Shown: positions 1 to 37,312, numbered from the stretch's first letter. The stretch is DNA of 37,312 bases from a virus (IMGVR_UViG_3300043540_000062:1-37312), one strand, 5' to 3'. Translations and numbers: made by a program. The notes: generated from the sequence alone by a model not told the origin.

Positions 1-127
1 CAAACGATGGTATCTTTGGTAAGACTGACGACCATGTGCCGTTGTTTTGCCCCTGTATCGTAATGCCGATAACGCCATAGACGCCTCGTGTTCGATAATC
101 TTGGAGCTGGGCGGCAATAGATTCAAA
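1..127. repeat. Terminal direct repeat copy 1 (= 37186..37312); circular-assembly overlap
   Basis: caaacgatggtatctttggtaag...ggcggcaatagattcaaa occurs base-for-base at both window ends (127 nt). It lies inside a continuous reading frame. Confidence 0.97.
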
Positions 128-22794: not shown

Positions 22795-22946
22795 TTTGGT
22801 AAGTTTTTTCTAATTTCTTTGGCACATTTACTACACAGTAGACTTTGAGAAGTAACAGGTTCATATATTGTAGGAACTACGAAAGAGCGTTTTCGAATTA
22901 TGAATCTTCTTTTGCGGCAGGCTTCACACTTGGATAAAAACTTCAT
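22791..22946 (-). CDS. Zinc-ribbon mini-protein (51 aa)
   Basis: Below the ORF-track cutoff. MKFLSKCEACRKRRFIIRKRSFVVPTIYEPVTSQSLLCSKCAKEIRKNLPK (CxxC...CxxC). ATGA overlap with the GroEL-like stop. Confidence 0.45.
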   Translation of the reverse strand: MKFLSKCEACRKRRFIIRKRSFVVPTIYEPVTSQSLLCSKCAKEIRKNLPK

Positions 22947-24448
22947 CGAGGTTGCATTCTTAGGTTCATTGCTTTAATTTCTTCTTTAATTTCCGCGGGA
23001 ATGGTAATAACTCCTTTGGTAGTAAGTATAATACCAGCTATGGAGATTGCGTTGGTTATCGCGGATTTTATTACTATTGCAGGGTCAATTATACCATCTA
23101 TTCTCAATTGATGTCCATCTGTACCGAGAATATGGGAGGGTTCATTCAATGCTGTAGCGAGTATTTTGGCTCCAATCGTGTCTGTGAGTGACCTTGAGGC
23201 TACTTCTAGAGATTGGCCTGACCCAGTGACTACCCCTTCTTGAAGTGCCCAATATGAGGCGTGTGTTGCGTCCTTTGACTTCTTAATCTTCCATGAAAGT
23301 TCTGAGTCACTGTGTGCTCCGACCTTTAAGACAGCGACCTTTGTATTGAGCCACGACGCACGAACTAGTTGTTGGTCGTCCTTTAGTCCGGCAATCTTTA
23401 AGGTTTCAATATAGTCCTTTACGTCTTTTATACCCATGACGCGTGTCTCTTCTTTTGAACAAACTAATTTCTCACAAGTTCCTAAGTGTTCAGCTTTCAA
23501 AGTTGAGAAAGTCTTACCTATTCGACTATCCACAGGTTGTGCACCGGTTATCTTAGAAAAATCCTCATATAACCAATCTTTCCACAAAATAGGAGCTTTT
23601 ATGATAAGAAACTTCATTGGTATCTTATCATTAGGCAAATCCCCATTCAGTGTTTGTACAGTATTTTTAGCGAGCGTGGAAGCTACCATAAGCTCAATGT
23701 CCTCACAGTATATGACAAGTTCATTTATACTCTGAGCACGTAACTCTTTTATGACTGGTAATATCTGCTTTACATCAGTTATTTTATCTTTAGTAATCAG
23801 AATCCTGGGATTCTTGAGTATGCACTTACCGTCTTCGGTCTGCCAATATCCTCCGAACCAACCTGACCTAATTCGTATTCCCTCAATAACTTCATAATAA
23901 GTGTCAGGAAGAGTTGAAGGTTCAATCTCAACAATGCCGTCACGACCAATCTCTTTGTAGGCATCTCCGATTATCTTGCCAAGTTCTGGTGATTCAGACG
24001 CAGTCGTCGCTATTGAATGAACATCACTCGGTTCAATTGGCTTCGTCTGATCGTCAATCGATTTAATTAGCACTGGCAAACAGTCATCCAGTTGTCGCTT
24101 AAGTTCAAGTGGTGTTATTTGGTCTGTTACTTTAATTCCTTCATTTAGAATTGAAGTGGTGAGTATAATAGTAGTCTTGCGTCCGTCACCTGCTTCTTTG
24201 TCTTGTCTCTCACATGCTTCATTCAAGATATTTGCGCCTATTTGCTCGATTGGATCAGCAAGCAAAATACAATTAGATATAAGTTTGCCGTCATTGCTTA
24301 CACGGTGTCCAGGGGATTGATTTTCCTCAATTACCACATTACTACCGTTTGGTCCGTAAGTTGGTTTAATAACGTTACACACCTTATTAACTCCCCCAAT
24401 AAGTTTGAGCAATGACTGTTCGTAATTAGCTATATTGTCTATTTTCAT
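22943..24448 (-). CDS. groEL: GroEL-like group I chaperonin (Cpn60 family)
   Basis: 501 aa, collinear with E. coli GroEL. Matches include [128 protein letters not shown] and [50 protein letters not shown]. There is no GGM tail. Confidence 0.9.
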   Translation of the reverse strand: [501 protein letters not shown]

Positions 24449-24911: not shown

Positions 24912-25079
24912 TTAAGAGAGGTCGATGTCATCGACAGGATTATTAGGATTTATAAATTCAACTTTCTTTGACCTAAAGTTTTTCAATTTCGTTTGAACTT
25001 CTCTTTTGTATGCCAATATATTTAATATAGACAGCAGTATACCAATAACAATACCAATTATTAAATAGAGGAAATTCAT
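24912..25079 (-). CDS. Small N-terminally membrane-anchored protein (55 aa)
   Basis: Below the ORF-track cutoff. MNFLYLIIGIVIGILLSILNILAYKREVQTKLKNFRSKKVEFINPNNPVDDIDLS. ATGA overlap with the glycosyltransferase stop. Confidence 0.45.
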   Translation of the reverse strand: MNFLYLIIGIVIGILLSILNILAYKREVQTKLKNFRSKKVEFINPNNPVDDIDLS

Positions 25080-25711
25080 ATAAATATTTCTTTTAGGTGA
25101 GACGCAAACAGATCAGTATCACACCAAATATCTATCCCTTTCTCTTCAGCCTTTTTGCAGAAGGTAACATCTTCTCCAAAATAGACCACGTGCTTTTCAT
25201 CTAACCACTTAGTCTCAAACCACGGTTCAGGTATCTTTTCAAGTGCTCGCCTATGTATCAAAAGAAAACCTGTTGCAATGATACTTACTTTTTGCAAACC
25301 AGTGTTTCTTTGTACTCTCGGCGAACCATCAAGCGTCTTTCCAATTGCGTGCAATAGAAACGCGCTCGTACCAATTATAATGCCACCAGATTTATCATTT
25401 GTAACTAAGTTATATACACCGCCAATTATGTCTTTTTTATGTCGCATGAGTGCTTTTATATCACCCAAGTTAGGTACAGTGTCACTATCAATAAATAGCA
25501 AATATTTTCTTCGGGTTTTTAGGAACTCTCTAACACAAATATTCCGATTATCATCTATGAGAGGCCCTTGAACCATATTTACACTAGCGCCCAGTGCTGA
25601 CCATTTTATCAACTTCATGACAAGTGAAACAGTCAGCTTTCCGTTCTGTGGCACTGGTATAGCAATAAACACATCTTTTAATGGTTTGATAAACATAGAC
25701 GGTAAAATCAT
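25076..25711 (-). CDS. Glycosyltransferase, GT2-like
   Basis: 211 aa. YLLFIDSDTVP is a DxD motif in a Rossmann-like context. IIATGFLLIHRRALEKI is typical of GT-A family 2 enzymes. Confidence 0.6.
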   Translation of the reverse strand: MILPSMFIKPLKDVFIAIPVPQNGKLTVSLVMKLIKWSALGASVNMVQGPLIDDNRNICVREFLKTRRKYLLFIDSDTVPNLGDIKALMRHKKDIIGGVYNLVTNDKSGGIIIGTSAFLLHAIGKTLDGSPRVQRNTGLQKVSIIATGFLLIHRRALEKIPEPWFETKWLDEKHVVYFGEDVTFCKKAEEKGIDIWCDTDLFASHLKEIFI

Positions 25712-27286: not shown

Positions 27287-27889
27287 TTATTTGTTGGCTT
27301 CATAAAATGCTTTTGCAAATCCTTTAGGAGTAATAGACCTGCGGATTTGAACAGGTTTCATTTTTCCGTCTTGTTTATAATCTTCCGGTATTGGTGGTAA
27401 GGGGCGAGTATTATTTCGGGATTGTATAATTTCTTTAGCGTTTAGTTTTATTGGTTTCTTTTTTGGCTCATTAAAATTACCCCAAATGAATGTCTGTTTT
27501 GAGTGTCTATCTCCAAAATCGTATGGGTGAAACTTAAAAGGTGGTTTACCCATAAAGCGTTGTAGGTGTCCAGCTGGGTTTTCCATAGCCCAAAACTTCA
27601 AACCAAATCGGTTATCAAATTGGCTTTCCCAAATTATTCTCAAACAAGCACGGACTATCTCCATAGCTCCACGAAAATCTCTTGGTGTTTTTGCAGTAGT
27701 TCGAGCACGAGAGAACATAGTGCAAGGCGGAGCTGCCAATATACCATAGACATCTTTAGGTGGCTTGTAAGTTAAAACATCGTATTCCGGTAGTGTAATA
27801 ACACTCACATCATAACCATTATCTTTATAAAACTTACTCCACGCCCCTGTTCCCCCACACAAATCAAGTATTATTTTTTCTTTATTCAT
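27287..27889 (-). CDS. Minimal DNA (cytosine-5) methyltransferase-like protein
   Basis: 200 aa. ILDLCGGTGAW matches motif I (FxGxG-like). ILAAPPCTMFS matches motif IV (PC). FWAMENPAG matches motif VI (ENV-like). No recognisable target-recognition domain or motifs IX/X. Confidence 0.65.
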   Translation of the reverse strand: MNKEKIILDLCGGTGAWSKFYKDNGYDVSVITLPEYDVLTYKPPKDVYGILAAPPCTMFSRARTTAKTPRDFRGAMEIVRACLRIIWESQFDNRFGLKFWAMENPAGHLQRFMGKPPFKFHPYDFGDRHSKQTFIWGNFNEPKKKPIKLNAKEIIQSRNNTRPLPPIPEDYKQDGKMKPVQIRRSITPKGFAKAFYEANK

Positions 27890-32610: not shown

Positions 32611-32946
32611 ATGAACAAAATATCACTACGCAACGGAGACTGGTCGTTCATCCCGACCAACGAGAAGATTATTGGAGAGACTATTAAGCATGACGGCACG
32701 TTCACGTTTGCCGAAGGAGAGGCGACAGGACACTTTCATAAGCTTATGGTCAAAAATAAAGACGATATGACGTTCAAGAAAATGCCAGATGGTTCATATC
32801 TTGTCGTTCTGAAGTCCGAAGGAATTGCTACTCACCCTGAACATTCTCTCAAGAGGCATCTTACTATTCCTCCAGGTACGTATAAACTTACACAGAGGCG
32901 CGAGAAGGATTGGTTCCAATTAATAACGCGAAAAGTTCTAGACTAA
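32611..32946 (+). CDS. Hypothetical protein with GEATGHFH motif
   Basis: 111 aa. AEGEATGHFHKL ... HPEHSLKRHLTIPPGTYKLTQRRE resembles a recurrent small phage family (GE.TGH.H ... H.EH ... G.Y...QRE) of unknown function. Confidence 0.6.
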   Translation: MNKISLRNGDWSFIPTNEKIIGETIKHDGTFTFAEGEATGHFHKLMVKNKDDMTFKKMPDGSYLVVLKSEGIATHPEHSLKRHLTIPPGTYKLTQRREKDWFQLITRKVLD

Positions 32947-32947
32947 C

Positions 32948-34393
32948 ATGCCTACACGAATAGAAAAACTCACGCAGAAGCAAAAAGATGCTATGCCTGC
33001 ATATAGAGATATGTGGATTGCAAAAGGATTACAGACTGGCGAGACTGATTGGGATACCTTTGATAAGTACATGCCGATTTGCTATGAAAAGGCTGGCATC
33101 TCTTATCCGAAACGCGTTGTTAGGGTAATGTCACCAATGGTCGGGGCGTTTGCAGCAGCGATAGCTGAAGGGATATTGCGAAAAAGGGACAACGCAATTG
33201 GCGACGAAGTTATCGGCGAAGTTCGCAACGCAGTTGGCAACGCAGTTAGCAACTCAGTTGGCGTCGCAGTTAGAGGCGCAGTTGGCGTCGCAGTTGGCGG
33301 CGCAGTTGGAGACGCAGTTAGCGGCGCAGTTAACGGCGCAGTTAGAGGCGCAGTTGGCGTCGCAGTTGGCGGCGCAGTTGTAGACGCAGTTGGAGACGCA
33401 GTTGGCGGCGCAGTTAACGGCGCAGTTGGAGGCGCAGTTAGCGGCGCAGTTGGCGTCGCAGTTAGAGGCGCAGTTGGCGTCGCAGTTGTAGACGCAGTTA
33501 GAGGCGCAGTTAGAGGCGCAGTTGGCGGCGCAGTTGGAGACGCAGTTGGAGACGCAGTTCGCAACGCAGTTGGCGTCGCAGTTGGAGACGCAGTTAGAGG
33601 CGCAGTTAACGGCGCAGTTAGCGTCGCAGTTCGCAACGCAGTTAGCGGCGCAGTTGGAGACGCAGTTGGTAACCTAATAAAAGCCGGTGTACCAATATCA
33701 GAGCATTACTGGTTTGGTGGTCAGTTTTGGGTTGGAGGTTGGTATTGGGGTGTCTCATTTGTAAACTTTTTCTTTGACGTCTGTGGATTAAAGTTCGAAA
33801 AAGACATCATGGAACGAGCACTTGCTTATCGTAAGGTATGTGAATCGGTAAATTACATATGGCCAAACCGAGACTTCGTCATGGTGTGTGCTCGACCAAC
33901 AAAGATTTCGAGGAATGTTTTAGGCCAACTTCATTGCGAAAATGGCATGGCTATTCAATACCCTGATGGTTGGGGTCTTTATCTTCTTAACGGTGTGAGG
34001 TTCGATGAGACACTCTACAAAAAAGTGATTGACCCATCATGGCCATTCTCAGAACGCATGAAGATCGTAGATATTGACCAGAGAACACAAGCTATTAACC
34101 CGAAGTTCTGCGATATAGACGCATTCATCAAAGAGGCAAAAGGTGAATTGCTCGATGAGCGTACTAAATACGATATCGACGCAAATCCTGGCAACTATAA
34201 GCTCTATAAGTTCCCCAGAGGACCTATATTCACCGAAGACGCATACTATTGCTATTTTGACTGTCCTTCGACTGGTAAGAAGCACTTAGAGGGCGTAGAA
34301 GTCGCCAAGACAGTGGCGGAGGCAATGGCATGGGCAGAGGATATTACCGTGCAAGACTGGGAGAATCGAATACCCCTCGTTCATGAAAATTAA
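32948..34393 (+). CDS. Tetrapeptide-repeat protein with DUF6745-like C-terminal domain
   Basis: 481 aa. An 85-aa N-terminal region is followed by 39 tandem x-A-V-x tetrapeptides. The C-terminal domain has QLHCENGMAIQYPDGWGLYLLNGVRF and VAKTVAEAMAWAEDI, which match my recollection of the DUF6745 family (LHCEDGPA..Y.DGW..Y..HGV..P ... A.EA.AWTFG). Confidence 0.8.
   Translation: MPTRIEKLTQKQKDAMPAYRDMWIAKGLQTGETDWDTFDKYMPICYEKAGISYPKRVVRVMSPMVGAFAAAIAEGILRKRDNAIGDEVIGEVRNAVGNAVSNSVGVAVRGAVGVAVGGAVGDAVSGAVNGAVRGAVGVAVGGAVVDAVGDAVGGAVNGAVGGAVSGAVGVAVRGAVGVAVVDAVRGAVRGAVGGAVGDAVGDAVRNAVGVAVGDAVRGAVNGAVSVAVRNAVSGAVGDAVGNLIKAGVPISEHYWFGGQFWVGGWYWGVSFVNFFFDVCGLKFEKDIMERALAYRKVCESVNYIWPNRDFVMVCARPTKISRNVLGQLHCENGMAIQYPDGWGLYLLNGVRFDETLYKKVIDPSWPFSERMKIVDIDQRTQAINPKFCDIDAFIKEAKGELLDERTKYDIDANPGNYKLYKFPRGPIFTEDAYYCYFDCPSTGKKHLEGVEVAKTVAEAMAWAEDITVQDWENRIPLVHEN
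33203..33670 (+). repeat. 39 tandem copies of a 12-nt unit (cgcagttNNNNN) encoding x-A-V-x
   Basis: Read directly. The gca-gtt (Ala-Val) core is nearly invariant at nucleotide level. Flanking codons alternate among ggc/gtc/gac/aac and ggc/aga/agc/aac/gta/cgc. Confidence 0.95.
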
Positions 34394-35081
34394 ATATGAA
34401 TATATGAAATATAAACTAACATCAAAATCAATCACTCAATGGTCAGGCAAAGTTTTATTCCAAATAGAAGCAACTGTTTCTTTTGGTTTAATTAACAAAG
34501 GGGAACTTGGTGGTTATGTAGAAAAGGAAAGCAATCTTAGTCAAGATGATGACGCTTGGGTCTATGGTAACGCTCGGGTCTATGGTAACGCTCAGGTCTA
34601 TGGTAACGCTCGGGTCTATGGTAACGCTCGGGTCTATGGTAACGCTCAGGTCTCTGGTGACGCTCAGGTCTCTGGTGACGCTTGGGTCTATGGTAACGCT
34701 TGGGTCTCTGGTGACGCTTGGGTCTCTGGTGACGCTTGGGTCTCTGGTAACGCTCAGGTCTATGGTGACGCTTGGGTCTCTGGTGACGCTTGGGTCTCTG
34801 GTGACGCTCAGGTCTCTGGTGACGCTCAGGTCTCTGGTAACGCTTGGGTCTGTCTAAAATCCTCATTTACTAAGGGCTGGTTCATTGGTGGAGGTGATTC
34901 AGGGAAGATTACAGATATTACAGAAAAGACTGGCTCAACTTATTGGAAGAATCAATACGTACTTGGAGACTATGAGATTACTCCGATAGAGGATGAGAAT
35001 AAAAAGGAGGAAGAATCTCTCTCAGGTCAGGAGGTTACTGTGACGGTAGCAGGTAAGATGTATAAGGCAGTAATTAAATGA
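34383..35081 (+). CDS. Hexapeptide-repeat (left-handed beta-helix-type) protein
   Basis: 232 aa. N-terminal ...INKGELGGYVEKESNLSQDDDAW, then 17 copies of [ND]-A-[RQW]-V-[YS]-G. 11-nt overlap with the upstream gene. Confidence 0.8.
   Translation: MKIKYEYMKYKLTSKSITQWSGKVLFQIEATVSFGLINKGELGGYVEKESNLSQDDDAWVYGNARVYGNAQVYGNARVYGNARVYGNAQVSGDAQVSGDAWVYGNAWVSGDAWVSGDAWVSGNAQVYGDAWVSGDAWVSGDAQVSGDAQVSGNAWVCLKSSFTKGWFIGGGDSGKITDITEKTGSTYWKNQYVLGDYEITPIEDENKKEEESLSGQEVTVTVAGKMYKAVIK
34551..34856 (+). repeat. 17 tandem copies of an 18-nt unit (gRc gct YRg gtc tMt ggt)
   Basis: Read directly. Only four nucleotide positions per unit vary: aac/gac, cgg/cag/tgg and tat/tct. Confidence 0.95.
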
Positions 35082-35369: not shown

Positions 35370-35576
35370 ATGTTCACCAAAGCAAATATTTTGTCACTCG
35401 CGCATACGTTTATTGCTACGTTCATTACCGCCTTTGCCGCTATCATCGTCGCCATTCCAACTGATTCATTCTTCTCTCCGCAGACATGGACAGGTGCGGC
35501 AATCGCAGGTATTCTCATTTCAGCCGTTCGTTCAGGAGTAAAGTCAATCTCTGGTACCTTCTTACGGCAGTCGTAG
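35370..35576 (+). CDS. Two-TM membrane protein, r1t/LL-H-type holin-like
   Basis: 68 aa. LSLAHTFIATFITAFAAIIVAIPTDSFFSPQTWTGAAIAGILISAVRSGVKSI fits the remembered r1t-holin pattern (a.R..KTFaQt...... w....a...a..S.l.s). TGGTATAAT promoter lies 26 nt upstream. Confidence 0.6.
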   Translation: MFTKANILSLAHTFIATFITAFAAIIVAIPTDSFFSPQTWTGAAIAGILISAVRSGVKSISGTFLRQS

Positions 35577-35605
35577 TGTCATACTATATCTGTCTCTCAC
35601 CATAC

Positions 35606-35625
35606 AAAAAAGGGGCACTAGCCCC
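35606..35625 (-). terminator. Intrinsic terminator, best in minus orientation
   Basis: aaaaaaGGGGCactaGCCCC. In minus orientation the stem is followed by UUUUUU. It also follows the plus-strand holin-like gene. Confidence 0.6.
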
Positions 35626-35743
35626 CCATTTGTGTGCGTTATTTGTCGGCAATACCCACCGACAAATAAGTATACAACGAAATGACCGCCTAAAAGCGGT
35701 CTATCGTCCCTTGTTGCAGGTTCAGTAATGATAACACGAAAAG

Positions 35744-35772
35744 GCGGCAATGAGCCGCGTTTTTCGGTTTTT
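35744..35772 (+). terminator. Intrinsic terminator, plus orientation
   Basis: GCGGCaatgaGCCGCgtttttcggttttt. Confidence 0.6.
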
Positions 35773-35865
35773 GCGTCAACGCATAAGGCGATGCGCGCGC
35801 CCAACCCTGCAACGAAGGTGGACAAGAGAGTAGACGACGGTGGTATGGAAATATTACAGTGGTCT

Positions 35866-35890
35866 AAAAAGCCGTCCTGGAGGGGGCGGC
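35866..35890 (-). terminator. Intrinsic terminator ending the minus arm
   Basis: Plus strand reads aaaaaGCCGtCCtggagggGGcGGC. In minus orientation the hairpin is followed by UUUUU. It overlaps the stop of 35890..36099. Confidence 0.55.
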
Positions 35891-36099
35891 TATGATGGTA
35901 TCTCTGACGGAGGCAGACGTAAGGTCATGGCACGTATTGCATACCGATAGCCTCCGAGGATTTTAGTTTCGGAAATAAATGCTGGTTGCTTAATGTAGTG
36001 AGTTGCTTCACCTTGAGCGTTCCACGCGATTGGCTCAACCCAAATGATGTCGGTTGGTCGAACGCGGCCGTGACTGACTACATACACGGAGTGTTTCAT
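35890..36099 (-). CDS. Hypothetical protein, last gene of the minus arm
   Basis: 69-aa ORF. 4-nt overlap with the HNH gene. An intrinsic terminator overlaps its stop. Confidence 0.55.
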   Translation of the reverse strand: MKHSVYVVSHGRVRPTDIIWVEPIAWNAQGEATHYIKQPAFISETKILGGYRYAIRAMTLRLPPSEIPS

Positions 36100-36377
36100 A
36101 CAATCTTTTCACAAGTAAAACGATAGTTAGTTGGTAACCACTTTTCGTTCATAATTGCGCAAATGGTTTCGGGACTAAAGTTGGAGAACAATATGTGCCA
36201 CGCATTGTGTTGAGTTTGAGGCACAACAGAAATGTTATCGGGGGTATTGCTCCCTTTCTTGCTCTGCGGTTGTCGATGATGTCGACTTTCTCCCCTACGG
36301 ATTTTGATGCACCGATAGGATGTTCTGAAACGACGTTGTGACCGAGACAGTTTTGGTTTCATATCAATTCCTTCCAT
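36096..36377 (-). CDS. Small HNH endonuclease-like protein
   Basis: 93 aa (88 aa if it starts at Met 36362, 1 nt after the upstream stop). RHHRQPQSKKGSNTPDNISVVPQTQHNAWHILFSNFSPE fits the HH..P.S.GG....N.......H..WH.LF.N small-HNH pattern. Confidence 0.65.
   Translation of the reverse strand: MEGIDMKPKLSRSQRRFRTSYRCIKIRRGESRHHRQPQSKKGSNTPDNISVVPQTQHNAWHILFSNFSPETICAIMNEKWLPTNYRFTCEKIV
36231..36261. repeat. 31-bp direct repeat, copy 2 (inside the HNH gene, encodes KKGSNTPDNI on the minus strand)
   Basis: See copy 1. Confidence 0.9.
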
Positions 36378-36612
36378 CTCCGTAGCATCCTTCGTTCATC
36401 CCCCAGTCGGAGAGATGGTCGTAGGGTGGCGGGGGGTGTTTTTCAAACATTGGTTGTTGGTTGACCGACGGGTATGGTGGAACGACAAACATATCGCTGA
36501 AGCGCCACAAACTAAAGCAGGTGACGTCGCAGTAAACATGTCCATTCCCTGGGCGATACTGAGTGAGCTTGGTTATCTCCTTGTTGCAATACCGACAGAA
36601 TGAAACAGTCAT
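36364..36612 (-). CDS. Zinc-finger small protein
   Basis: 82 aa. MTVSFCRYCNKEITKLTQYRPGNGHVYCDVTCFSLW (CxxC...CxxxC), Pro-rich C-terminus. Confidence 0.6.
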   Translation of the reverse strand: MTVSFCRYCNKEITKLTQYRPGNGHVYCDVTCFSLWRFSDMFVVPPYPSVNQQPMFEKHPPPPYDHLSDWGMNEGCYGDGRN

Positions 36613-36715
36613 ATATTTCCTTTCTATTTATTTGATTTACCGAGGACAGCATTCTGCTTTTAACAAAATGCTTGATTCGATAAACCACGATTCAAAGAGC
36701 TATCTCTGGTACTTA

Positions 36716-36724
36716 ATTATACCA
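36716..36724 (-). promoter_or_regulatory. Extended -10 promoter TGGTATAAT(TAA)
   Basis: Exact 12-mer, about 100 nt upstream of the zinc-finger gene 36364..36612. Confidence 0.5.
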
Positions 36725-36756
36725 TACTCCATCAAACAATTTTATCAAATGTGGAT

Positions 36757-36781
36757 AAACAAAAAACGACATTTCTGTCGT
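36757..36781 (-). terminator. Intrinsic terminator
   Basis: Minus strand reads ACGACagaaatGTCGTtttttgttt. Confidence 0.55.
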
Positions 36782-36890
36782 CTCTCGCCCTCGATCGGTG
36801 CGCGTTTTATGAAAAAAGTTTGCTGAACCGACGTTGGTGACCAGTACGACGATAACTCCAGTATGATTCTCATCAAACCAAAATGTCGCC
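36757..36890 (-). ncRNA. Candidate small transcription unit (sRNA or micro-ORF)
   Basis: Bounded by promoter 36897..36905 and terminator 36757..36781. The only ORF (42 aa, ATG 36871..36873) reads through the terminator stem. Confidence 0.3.
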
Positions 36891-36896
36891 TACAGC

Positions 36897-36905
36897 ATTA
36901 TACCA
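36897..36905 (-). promoter_or_regulatory. Extended -10 promoter TGGTATAAT(GCT)
   Basis: Exact TGGTATAAT in the non-coding gap after the peptidase gene. Drives a roughly 130-nt unit ending at terminator 36757..36781. Confidence 0.45.
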
Positions 36906-36994
36906 TAAACACAGGGGCCGCACGGGGATATGGGTCCCAGATGCGGCATGTGTATAAGAGTCCGGTCGAGTTCATTTCGACTGAACTGTAAATA

Positions 36995-37312
36995 TTATAT
37001 ACCCGACGGCTTCATTGCGCCATAGATGAACGGTTGCCAGTCCTCGGTAAGATATTGCTGACCGTTATTCCCGATTGATGTGCCCCATGAGTTGTCTACA
37101 ACTAATACTTTTTGTCCATTTACCAGTCCAAAGTCGGTGACCGTTAGGCGGTGATACCAAGCGGACGGATCGGGAGAGAGCGGGGCAAACGATGGTATCT
37201 TTGGTAAGACTGACGACCATGTGCCGTTGTTTTGCCCCTGTATCGTAATGCCGATAACGCCATAGACGCCTCGTGTTCGATAATCTTGGAGCTGGGCGGC
37301 AATAGATTCAAA
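36995..37312 (-). CDS. 3' part of the same papain-like peptidase ORF (37186..37312 duplicates 1..127)
   Basis: ...PSAWYHRLTVTDFGLVNGQKVLVVDNSWGTSIGNNGQQYLTEDW...GAMKPSGI*. His and N-S-W-G motifs match papain HAV.../NSWG..WG..GY. Stop TAA = reverse complement of 36995..36997. Confidence 0.75.
   Translation of the reverse strand, partial: FESIAAQLQDYRTRGVYGVIGITIQGQNNGTWSSVLPKIPSFAPLSPDPSAWYHRLTVTDFGLVNGQKVLVVDNSWGTSIGNNGQQYLTEDWQPFIYGAMKPSGI
37186..37312. repeat. Terminal direct repeat copy 2 (= 1..127)
   Basis: Identical to bases 1..127. Confidence 0.97.

Follow-up and report, generated by a model that had tools for sequence, protein, structure and literature searches.

The circumsporozoite protein of Plasmodium falciparum contains a central NANP/NVDP region, encoded by approximately 40 in-frame 12-nt units whose copy number varies by strain, that serves as a flexible, stalk-like spacer. 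We describe here an array of 12-nt units located in a DUF6745-family gene of the viral contig IMGVR_UViG_3300043540_000062, the whole 37,312-nt stretch of which is hereafter called the window. Like the circumsporozoite repeat, this array has some unit variants and is set between a conserved N-terminal region and a C-terminal domain. The likeness is an analogy only: the circumsporozoite repeat is eukaryotic, unrelated in sequence, immunodominant in the vertebrate host, limited to few unit variants and devoid of the layout of two variable and two fixed residues that characterizes the array. Transcription activator-like effectors (TALEs), in which units of 33–35 amino acids (aa) form helical hairpins that read DNA bases, provide a second comparison. 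As in the array, TALE units are homogenized at synonymous sites, vary in two adjacent residues and differ in number; this evolutionary signature is all that is shared, the array unit being 4 aa long instead of a folded repeat of 33–35 aa. Beta-solenoids built of pentapeptide or hexapeptide (YdcK) repeats also combine short in-frame repeats with a fixed scaffold and variable exposed positions. However, their period is 5 or 6 instead of 4, the Pfam repeat families (pentapeptide, hexapeptide, glycine zipper) gave no match over the array at E up to 1, and AlphaFold2 modelled no solenoid; moreover, adjacent Ala and Val residues cannot both point inward in a beta-strand. Finally, the DUF6745 proteins of Microcystis phages Ma-LMM01 and MaMV-DC share the three-part architecture of the window protein, of which the Pfam DUF6745 model covers the C-domain only, leaving the array and the N-domain outside.

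Our analysis indicates that the array is best explained as a translated coding minisatellite, which supplies a DUF6745-family protein with its variable central module, an explanation to which, taken as a whole, we assign a probability of roughly 65%. Array length appears to shift by gain or loss of whole units or blocks while the flanking domains stay unchanged, and units are homogenized within each array, even at synonymous sites, with different phages using different synonymous codons. Beneath this concerted evolution, protein-level selection maintains a small and then an aliphatic residue at positions 3 and 4 of the unit, and unit differences are confined almost wholly to the non-synonymous nucleotides of positions 1 and 2, which encode mostly Gly, Arg and Asp. 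These changes may arise by slippage during replication or by unequal recombination, the conversion tracts being less than a unit long. At the protein level, the array would act as an extended periodic stalk or spacer whose changes in length leave the N-domain and the C-terminal DUF6745 domain undisturbed, and the DUF6745 protein may work with a 111-aa His-cluster protein encoded immediately upstream. In the literature searched, no paper names DUF6745 and nothing relevant was returned for phage tetrapeptide or tandem repeats; neither the array and its dynamics nor the partner gene seems to have been described there.

Codon usage and variation in the 12-nt array

Tandem Repeats Finder detected a period of 12 with 39.8 copies and 0% indels at positions 33193–33669. 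Read in frame, positions 33200–33667 hold 39 units whose core is GCAGTT in 36 cases, GAAGTT in two and TCAGTT in one, so that the initial annotation, which had reported 39 indel-free repeats with near-invariant gca gtt codons and small sets of flanking codons, described the array accurately. The core array (Table 1) comprises 37 consecutive units, 36 of them xxAV and one SNSV. The Ala codon is GCA in 36 of the 37 and the Val codon is GTT in all 37, these being the preferred Ala and Val codons of this phage. Codon 1 of the core units encodes Gly (18), Arg (9), Ser (5), Asn (3) or Val (2), and codon 2 encodes Gly (17), Asp (8), Val (7) or Asn (5), giving 12 unit types that are interleaved without regular order. 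We counted 38 occurrences of the pattern GCAGTT-N6-GCAGTT with at most one mismatch, 37 of which fall inside the array; chance would give 0.15. In-frame, head-to-tail and indel-free units of this kind are one mark of a coding minisatellite, or variable number tandem repeat.

Related phages together use 13 different hexamers for Ala-Val, among them GCTGTT, GCGGTT, GCCGTG, GCGGTC and GCAGTT, while a single hexamer accounts for more than 90% of the units in most arrays; the closest relative, 73% identical to the C-terminal query, uses GCTGTT where the window has GCAGTT. We examined site entropy in 52 arrays comprising 1,781 units. Mean entropy per nucleotide was 1.15, 0.94, 0.17, 0.20, 1.03 and 0.09 bits over the first half of the unit and 0.07, 0.08, 0.09, 0, 0 and 0.10 bits over the second half. 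Variation thus occurs almost only at nucleotides 1, 2 and 5, all of them non-synonymous, with third codon positions at no more than 0.17 bit, and the variable codons hold 224 extra amino-acid variants against 10 extra synonymous ones. Gly (30%), Arg (28%) and Asp (24%) predominate at position 1 of these units and Gly (44%) and Asp (32%) at position 2, the six di-residues GG, RG, RD, DG, GD and DD together making up 64% of units.

Because the amino acids are conserved between lineages while synonymous uniformity is local to each array, these results point to concerted evolution acting on a protein-constrained repeat, not to a DNA motif. The concerted evolution proposed in the initial annotation, or rapid turnover, is thereby supported by one dominant hexamer per array among the 13 in use. 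Its companion claim, that the pattern reflects more than protein selection, holds in part: protein selection clearly fixes Ala-Val and also seems to hold positions 1 and 2 heterogeneous. The synonymous uniformity comes from concerted evolution. Since homogenization erases synonymous differences and amino-acid differences nevertheless persist, we infer that selection keeps positions 1 and 2 heterogeneous.

An alternative, related to the DNA- or RNA-level constraint raised in the initial annotation, is that the repeat acts as DNA or RNA, for instance through iterons bound by a protein, as an array of the centromere or origin kind, in packaging or as a structured RNA, and that its coding capacity is incidental. 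The array has a GC content of 61% in a genome of 43% GC, it lies downstream of plus-strand replication genes, and many related contigs end within it. Contig ends at this place are, however, the behaviour expected of an assembler at unresolved repeats. Furthermore, no core hexamer is common to the lineages, conservation is found at the amino-acid level in a frame that is open and free of indels in all of them, and folding of the array RNA compared with dinucleotide shuffles gave z = −0.85, the folding being equalled or bettered by 24 of 100 shuffles; Rfam gave no match within the window. We consider a function as nucleic acid to be largely refuted and its probability minimal. A shared CAGTT core read in different frames was also considered for two arrays with xSQL (L005) and xSQV (L001) units, and was rejected given the many unrelated core hexamers in the wider survey.

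Period-4 arrays across the DUF6745 family

The window protein matches the Pfam DUF6745 model (PF20530) with 39.6 bits against a gathering cut-off of 27 (E = 4.4e-10; model positions 29–91 of 206), which agrees with the family membership named in the initial annotation. Using the repeat-free C-terminal 240 aa as query, we retrieved 220 homologs from a word-indexed database, mostly on contigs of 30–50 kb, and an exhaustive search yielded 2,580 clusters at 50% identity (E ≤ 1e-3). Such a search had been proposed in the initial annotation. Most of the 220 carry a precomputed PF20530 match, none of the listed homologs is informatively named, and one homolog, P0069, bears a precomputed PF13436 match. 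Among cultured phages, tblastn found only Microcystis phage MaMV-DC, with 24% identity. The window protein itself is a singleton, no other contig encoding the same protein having been found. Searches with the N-domain returned short fragments only, apparently open reading frames (ORFs) truncated at arrays, and no alternative architecture.

The architecture common to the homologs consists of an N-domain of about 80 aa, an (xxAV)n array, a near-invariant W-x-GGQFWVG junction and the C-domain. In our viral survey, which covered 79 related viral loci in addition to the earlier ones, a period-12 array is present at nearly every locus, with 5 to approximately 81 units over about 70 related phage loci. 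The longest examples reach 81 (L042), 70+18 (L034), 64 (L049) and 61 units (L016), so that the 39 units of the window appear long, yet not extreme. At least five clean units are present in 71 of 136 diverse representatives. In other members the core is SV, QV, QL, QI, AT, NI or EV, and the layout of two variable and two fixed residues is still kept; in Melainabacteria, Obscuribacterales and Anaerolineales members, the place of the array is taken by a non-repetitive segment of comparable length. These surveys bear out the remark in the initial annotation that period-4 segments are frequent in the family, and at the same time overturn its description of the array as an insertion, the array being instead the normal central module of the family. 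Additional in-frame period-12 arrays, with cores such as AW, AA, RV and GN, occur in genes near the DUF6745 gene at several loci (L016, 9875–10053; L025, 1856–2117; L033, 2156–2378; L060, 952–1080; L083, 3543–3719; L014, 6004–6201), and short coding minisatellites seem to be common in this phage group.

Homologs with 100% identical C-domains differ in unit number: 15, 20, 21 and 29 units (P0019, P0020, P0021 and L012), 14 versus 25 (P0096 and P0097), 7 versus 16 (P0034 and P0036) and 11 versus 35 (P0111 and L041). Unit-by-unit listing revealed clean gains and losses of whole-unit blocks between relatives, and in a further set (P0087, P0089 and P0090) unit orders are reshuffled while the C-domains remain 99.5–100% identical. 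Identical C-domains flanked by arrays that differ in unit number or order suggest that arrays evolve much faster than their flanks. Array length had been expected to vary in the initial annotation, and our comparison of very close relatives, drawn from short-read assemblies, is in line with this expectation.

The reliability of these lengths depends on assembly. The window is a complete phage contig, equal to it in length, and has an exact 127-bp direct repeat at its termini; the genome is accordingly circular or terminally redundant and complete, and the 127-bp overlap implies assembly at k = 127. Because the 12 unit types lack regular order, the longest exact internal repeat in the window's array is 44 nt, well below the 127-bp assembly overlap, which makes the consensus array length credible. 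Collapse during assembly, a concern voiced in the initial annotation, is for this reason unlikely in this contig, while the concern is justified for its relatives: approximately 33 of the 79 related viral loci (about 40%) break off within the array, where several contigs have both of their ends. Five contigs, each represented by a pair of loci in IMG/VR (L031/L063, L027/L068, L058/L082, L040/L083 and L036/L085), open with the C-terminal half of the DUF6745 gene and close with its N-terminal half, and are circular genomes that the assembler linearized inside the array.

The truncated loci are also what would favour the view that the length or the very existence of the array is an assembly artefact, or else that its variability is made by a diversity-generating retroelement. 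We hold this to be very unlikely. In addition to the aperiodic unit order and the short internal repeats of the window's array, the same architecture recurs in hundreds of independent assemblies. As for the retroelement, the window has no second copy of the array that could serve as template, and no reverse transcriptase was found with PHROGs and Pfam among the 27 ORFs scanned, a set that does not include all small ORFs. No targeted mutator is evident.

Protein domains, array conformation and the partner gene

The alignment of DUF6745 proteins reveals invariant residues on both sides of the array, namely W23, G27, L28, T30, G31, D34, T37, P54, V60, S62, P63 and G66 in the N-domain, and W255, G257, G258, Q259, F260, W261 and G263 in the junction (Table 1). 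An AlphaFold2 model built on a 52-sequence alignment has block-mean predicted local distance difference test (pLDDT) scores of 83–96 over aa 1–60, decreasing to 77 and 68 towards the array, and of 85–97 over approximately aa 270–475. Foldseek searches with this protein against BFVD returned only other DUF6745 proteins, for instance that of Microcystis phage LMM01 (E = 9e-14, probability 1.00), and against the PDB no relative (best E = 0.7).

Table 1. Coordinates of features in the window (positions counted from its first nucleotide).
Feature	Position	Strand	Evidence
Gene for the 111-aa partner, all-beta, His/Glu cluster invariant: GEATGHxH ... HPEHS ... REKDW	32611..32946	+	Alignment, AlphaFold2
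DUF6745-family gene, 481 aa: N-domain, tetrapeptide array, aromatic/Gly junction, C-terminal DUF6745 domain	32948..34393	+	ORF, Pfam PF20530
Conserved N-terminal domain, aa 1–80, helices and one strand	32948..33187	+	Alignment, AlphaFold2
Three degenerate leading units (DNAI, GDEV, IGEV)	33188..33223	+	
Core array, 37 units [G/R/S/N/V][G/D/V/N]-Ala-Val, 36 GCAGTT and 1 TCAGTT	33224..33667	+	Tandem Repeats Finder, in-frame reading
Degenerate trailing unit GNLI	33668..33679	+	
Aromatic/Gly junction W-x-x-W-x-GGQFWVG, near-invariant, aa 252–263	33701..33736	+	Alignment
Pfam DUF6745 match, aa 291–353	33818..34006	+	Pfam; confidently folded C-domain at about aa 270–475 (AlphaFold2)
YdcK-type beta-solenoid gene	34383..35081		Pfam PF18836, E = 7e-25
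Array of 16–17 in-frame 18-nt units A[W/R/Q]V[Y/S]G[N/D] in the YdcK-type gene	34552..34851		
Small hydrophobic ORF	35370..35576		
Terminator-like hairpin cluster	35610..35760	both	
GroEL-like chaperonin gene	22943..24448	−	phrog_5725, E = 1.9e-70
Glycosyltransferase-like protein gene	25076..25711	−	
DNA methyltransferase gene	27287..27889	−	phrog_757
Terminal direct repeat, 127 bp	1..127 and 37186..37312		Exact match

The array itself was drawn by AlphaFold2 as long helices at pLDDT 30–65, with values below 50 at aa 131–145 and 156–217 and of 55–68 at both array ends. At a spacing of i to i+4, we found an excess of opposite charges (z about +3) and a deficit of like charges (z about −3). Both this spacing of charges and the presence of a non-repetitive segment of comparable length in array-free homologs are in favour of a helix. 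Of 46 arrays, 43 are net acidic. Our best guess is that the two conserved domains are joined by a periodic stalk or spacer, variable in length and patterned in charge, that is more likely helical than disordered.

The same genetics would also suit an array that is a disordered polyampholyte or a series of consecutive beta-turns (V-x-x-A, with Gly, Asp, Asn or Ser in mid-turn) and that acts as an entropic or elastic linker, a possibility to be kept in mind even if we judge it rather unlikely. It fits the low pLDDT of the array's interior, the prevalence at positions 1 and 2 of Gly and Asp, accompanied by some Ser, Asn and His, and the apparent absence of any penalty over the observed range of 5 to 81 units. 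The helices at the array ends and the i to i+4 pairing of opposite charges speak against it, as does the aliphatic residue kept at every fourth position across lineages, which suggests ordered periodic packing.

Several observations weigh against the stalk within a coding minisatellite that we favour. AlphaFold2 models the array with low confidence, at the pLDDT values given above; Gly makes up about 18% of array residues as calculated from residue frequencies, which disfavours a stable isolated helix, and the variable positions are turn-prone, Gly, Asp, Ser, Asn and His all having a high turn propensity. A hydrophobic residue every four positions mismatches a canonical coiled coil. The window's array, with a net charge of +1, is near-neutral where most arrays are acidic, so that a charge-based role is not uniform. 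Selection for heterogeneity is deduced from site patterns. The differences in unit count come from short-read assemblies, in which block deletions mimic de Bruijn graph collapse, and may thus be artefactual in part. Lastly, Pfam, PDB, Foldseek, PADLOC, NCBIfam and literature searches yielded no functional evidence for the DUF6745 protein or for its partner. In particular, PDB sequence searches were uninformative for both, as were Pfam, PHROGs, NCBIfam and PADLOC on their function, and the PADLOC defence and anti-defence models matched neither these two proteins nor the neighbouring one.

A single base separates the stop codon of the partner gene from the DUF6745 start codon downstream. Homologs of the partner directly adjoin a DUF6745 gene in 22 loci found at first and in 50 loci when more queries were used, in phages as well as in several bacterial phyla, with chromosomal pairs in Actinobacteria, Chloracidobacterium and Melainabacteria, the DUF6745 homolog of the last having no array. 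Adjacency in 50 loci, including chromosomal copies of which some are without array, indicates that the pair is an old, conserved two-gene module, whose larger protein carries the array as an elaboration specific to certain lineages. The residues G36, E37, A38, T39, H41, H43, H75, P76, H78, S79, E98, K99, D100 and W101 are invariant in the partner alignment, which suggests a metal-binding or catalytic site, a metal site being probable. AlphaFold2 yields an all-beta model of the partner (pLDDT 76), for which we found no match in Pfam, NCBIfam or PADLOC, nor in the PDB by sequence or Foldseek.

Among chromosomal copies, one from Solirubrobacterales (L092) has three DNA methyltransferase genes around it, of which two are N6/N4 and one is C5 (1290–2552, 7768–8622 and 8619–9851), which suggests a prophage or anti-restriction context. 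A second chromosomal copy lies amid ordinary genes, and neither context pointed to a function. Two contigs of one Solirubrobacterales metagenome-assembled genome (L095 and L096) have identical 4-kb upstream flanks and differ in their numbers of xxQI units; these copies are either paralogs, strain variants or an assembly duplication.

The pairing with a putative metal-binding protein would also accord with a reading of the array as a modular recognition surface, in the manner of TALE, PUF or PPR proteins, with the order of units under selection to fit a periodic ligand or else a fast-evolving host or defence target. Variation restricted to two adjacent codons in units otherwise identical in DNA, a repertoire so small that six di-residues cover most units, unit orders reshuffled among phages with nearly identical C-domains and the location of the gene among phage early genes would all accord with it. 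Yet there is no evidence for a ligand, and a 4-aa unit is far too short for a folded repeat; the repertoire encodes mostly charge states instead of diverse chemistry, and free variation in length among near-identical phages fits a fixed target poorly. The same site pattern is moreover present in the YdcK-type neighbour, hence such a signature may be common to all exposed repeat-protein positions of this phage. We regard a recognition surface as improbable. A related speculation, to which we give similarly little credence, is that the two-gene module is a phage–host conflict system whose array is a programmable recognition or charge-barcode surface, with variable di-residues borne on an Ala-Val scaffold and units quickly rewritten in number and order by slippage and recombination without a dedicated mutator; the new specificities of the array would then be likened to those of TALE di-residues or of diversity-generating retroelement targets.

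Gene neighbourhood and significance of the array

The structural module of the window, comprising terminase, portal, major head protein and tail spike genes, is on the minus strand, and the replication genes, coding for an O-like initiator, a DnaB-like helicase and a NinG-like protein, are on the plus strand. The DUF6745 gene is located at the distal end of the plus-strand replication block, upstream of terminator-like hairpins. A GroEL-like chaperonin is encoded beside the terminase gene, and the region that separates the structural module from the replication module holds genes for a DNA methyltransferase and a glycosyltransferase-like protein (Table 1). The gene that follows the DUF6745 gene overlaps its stop by 11 nt and codes for the YdcK-type beta-solenoid protein. 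In the repeat array of this gene, all synonymous sites are invariant and only four non-synonymous nucleotides vary, as in the tetrapeptide array; its repeat DNA is 83–87% identical to genes of Streptococcus phages Javan64, Javan246 and Javan68, and megablast matches of the window are confined to this repeat. A small hydrophobic ORF comes further downstream, followed by the hairpin cluster (10 terminator-like hairpins against 3.4 expected in the scanned region) and by an ORF-poor stretch of approximately 1.5 kb in which no tRNA or Rfam match was found. This region (35600–37200) is probably the boundary of divergent transcription units.

Since short-read phage assemblies are broken or distorted at such arrays, the copy numbers recorded for them in databases need care. 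The array belongs to a known kind of feature, that of repeat proteins under concerted evolution with hypervariable residues. Should the two-gene module turn out to act in conflict, its array would represent a protein surface of a new kind, one that can be rapidly re-written. DUF6745, with 2,580 clusters distributed among tailed phages and several bacterial phyla, gains a defined anatomy that consists of an N-domain, an array, a junction, a C-domain and a linked partner. The finding is in this respect more general than the initial annotation supposed: the minisatellite is the hypervariable middle of a widespread phage and bacterial protein.

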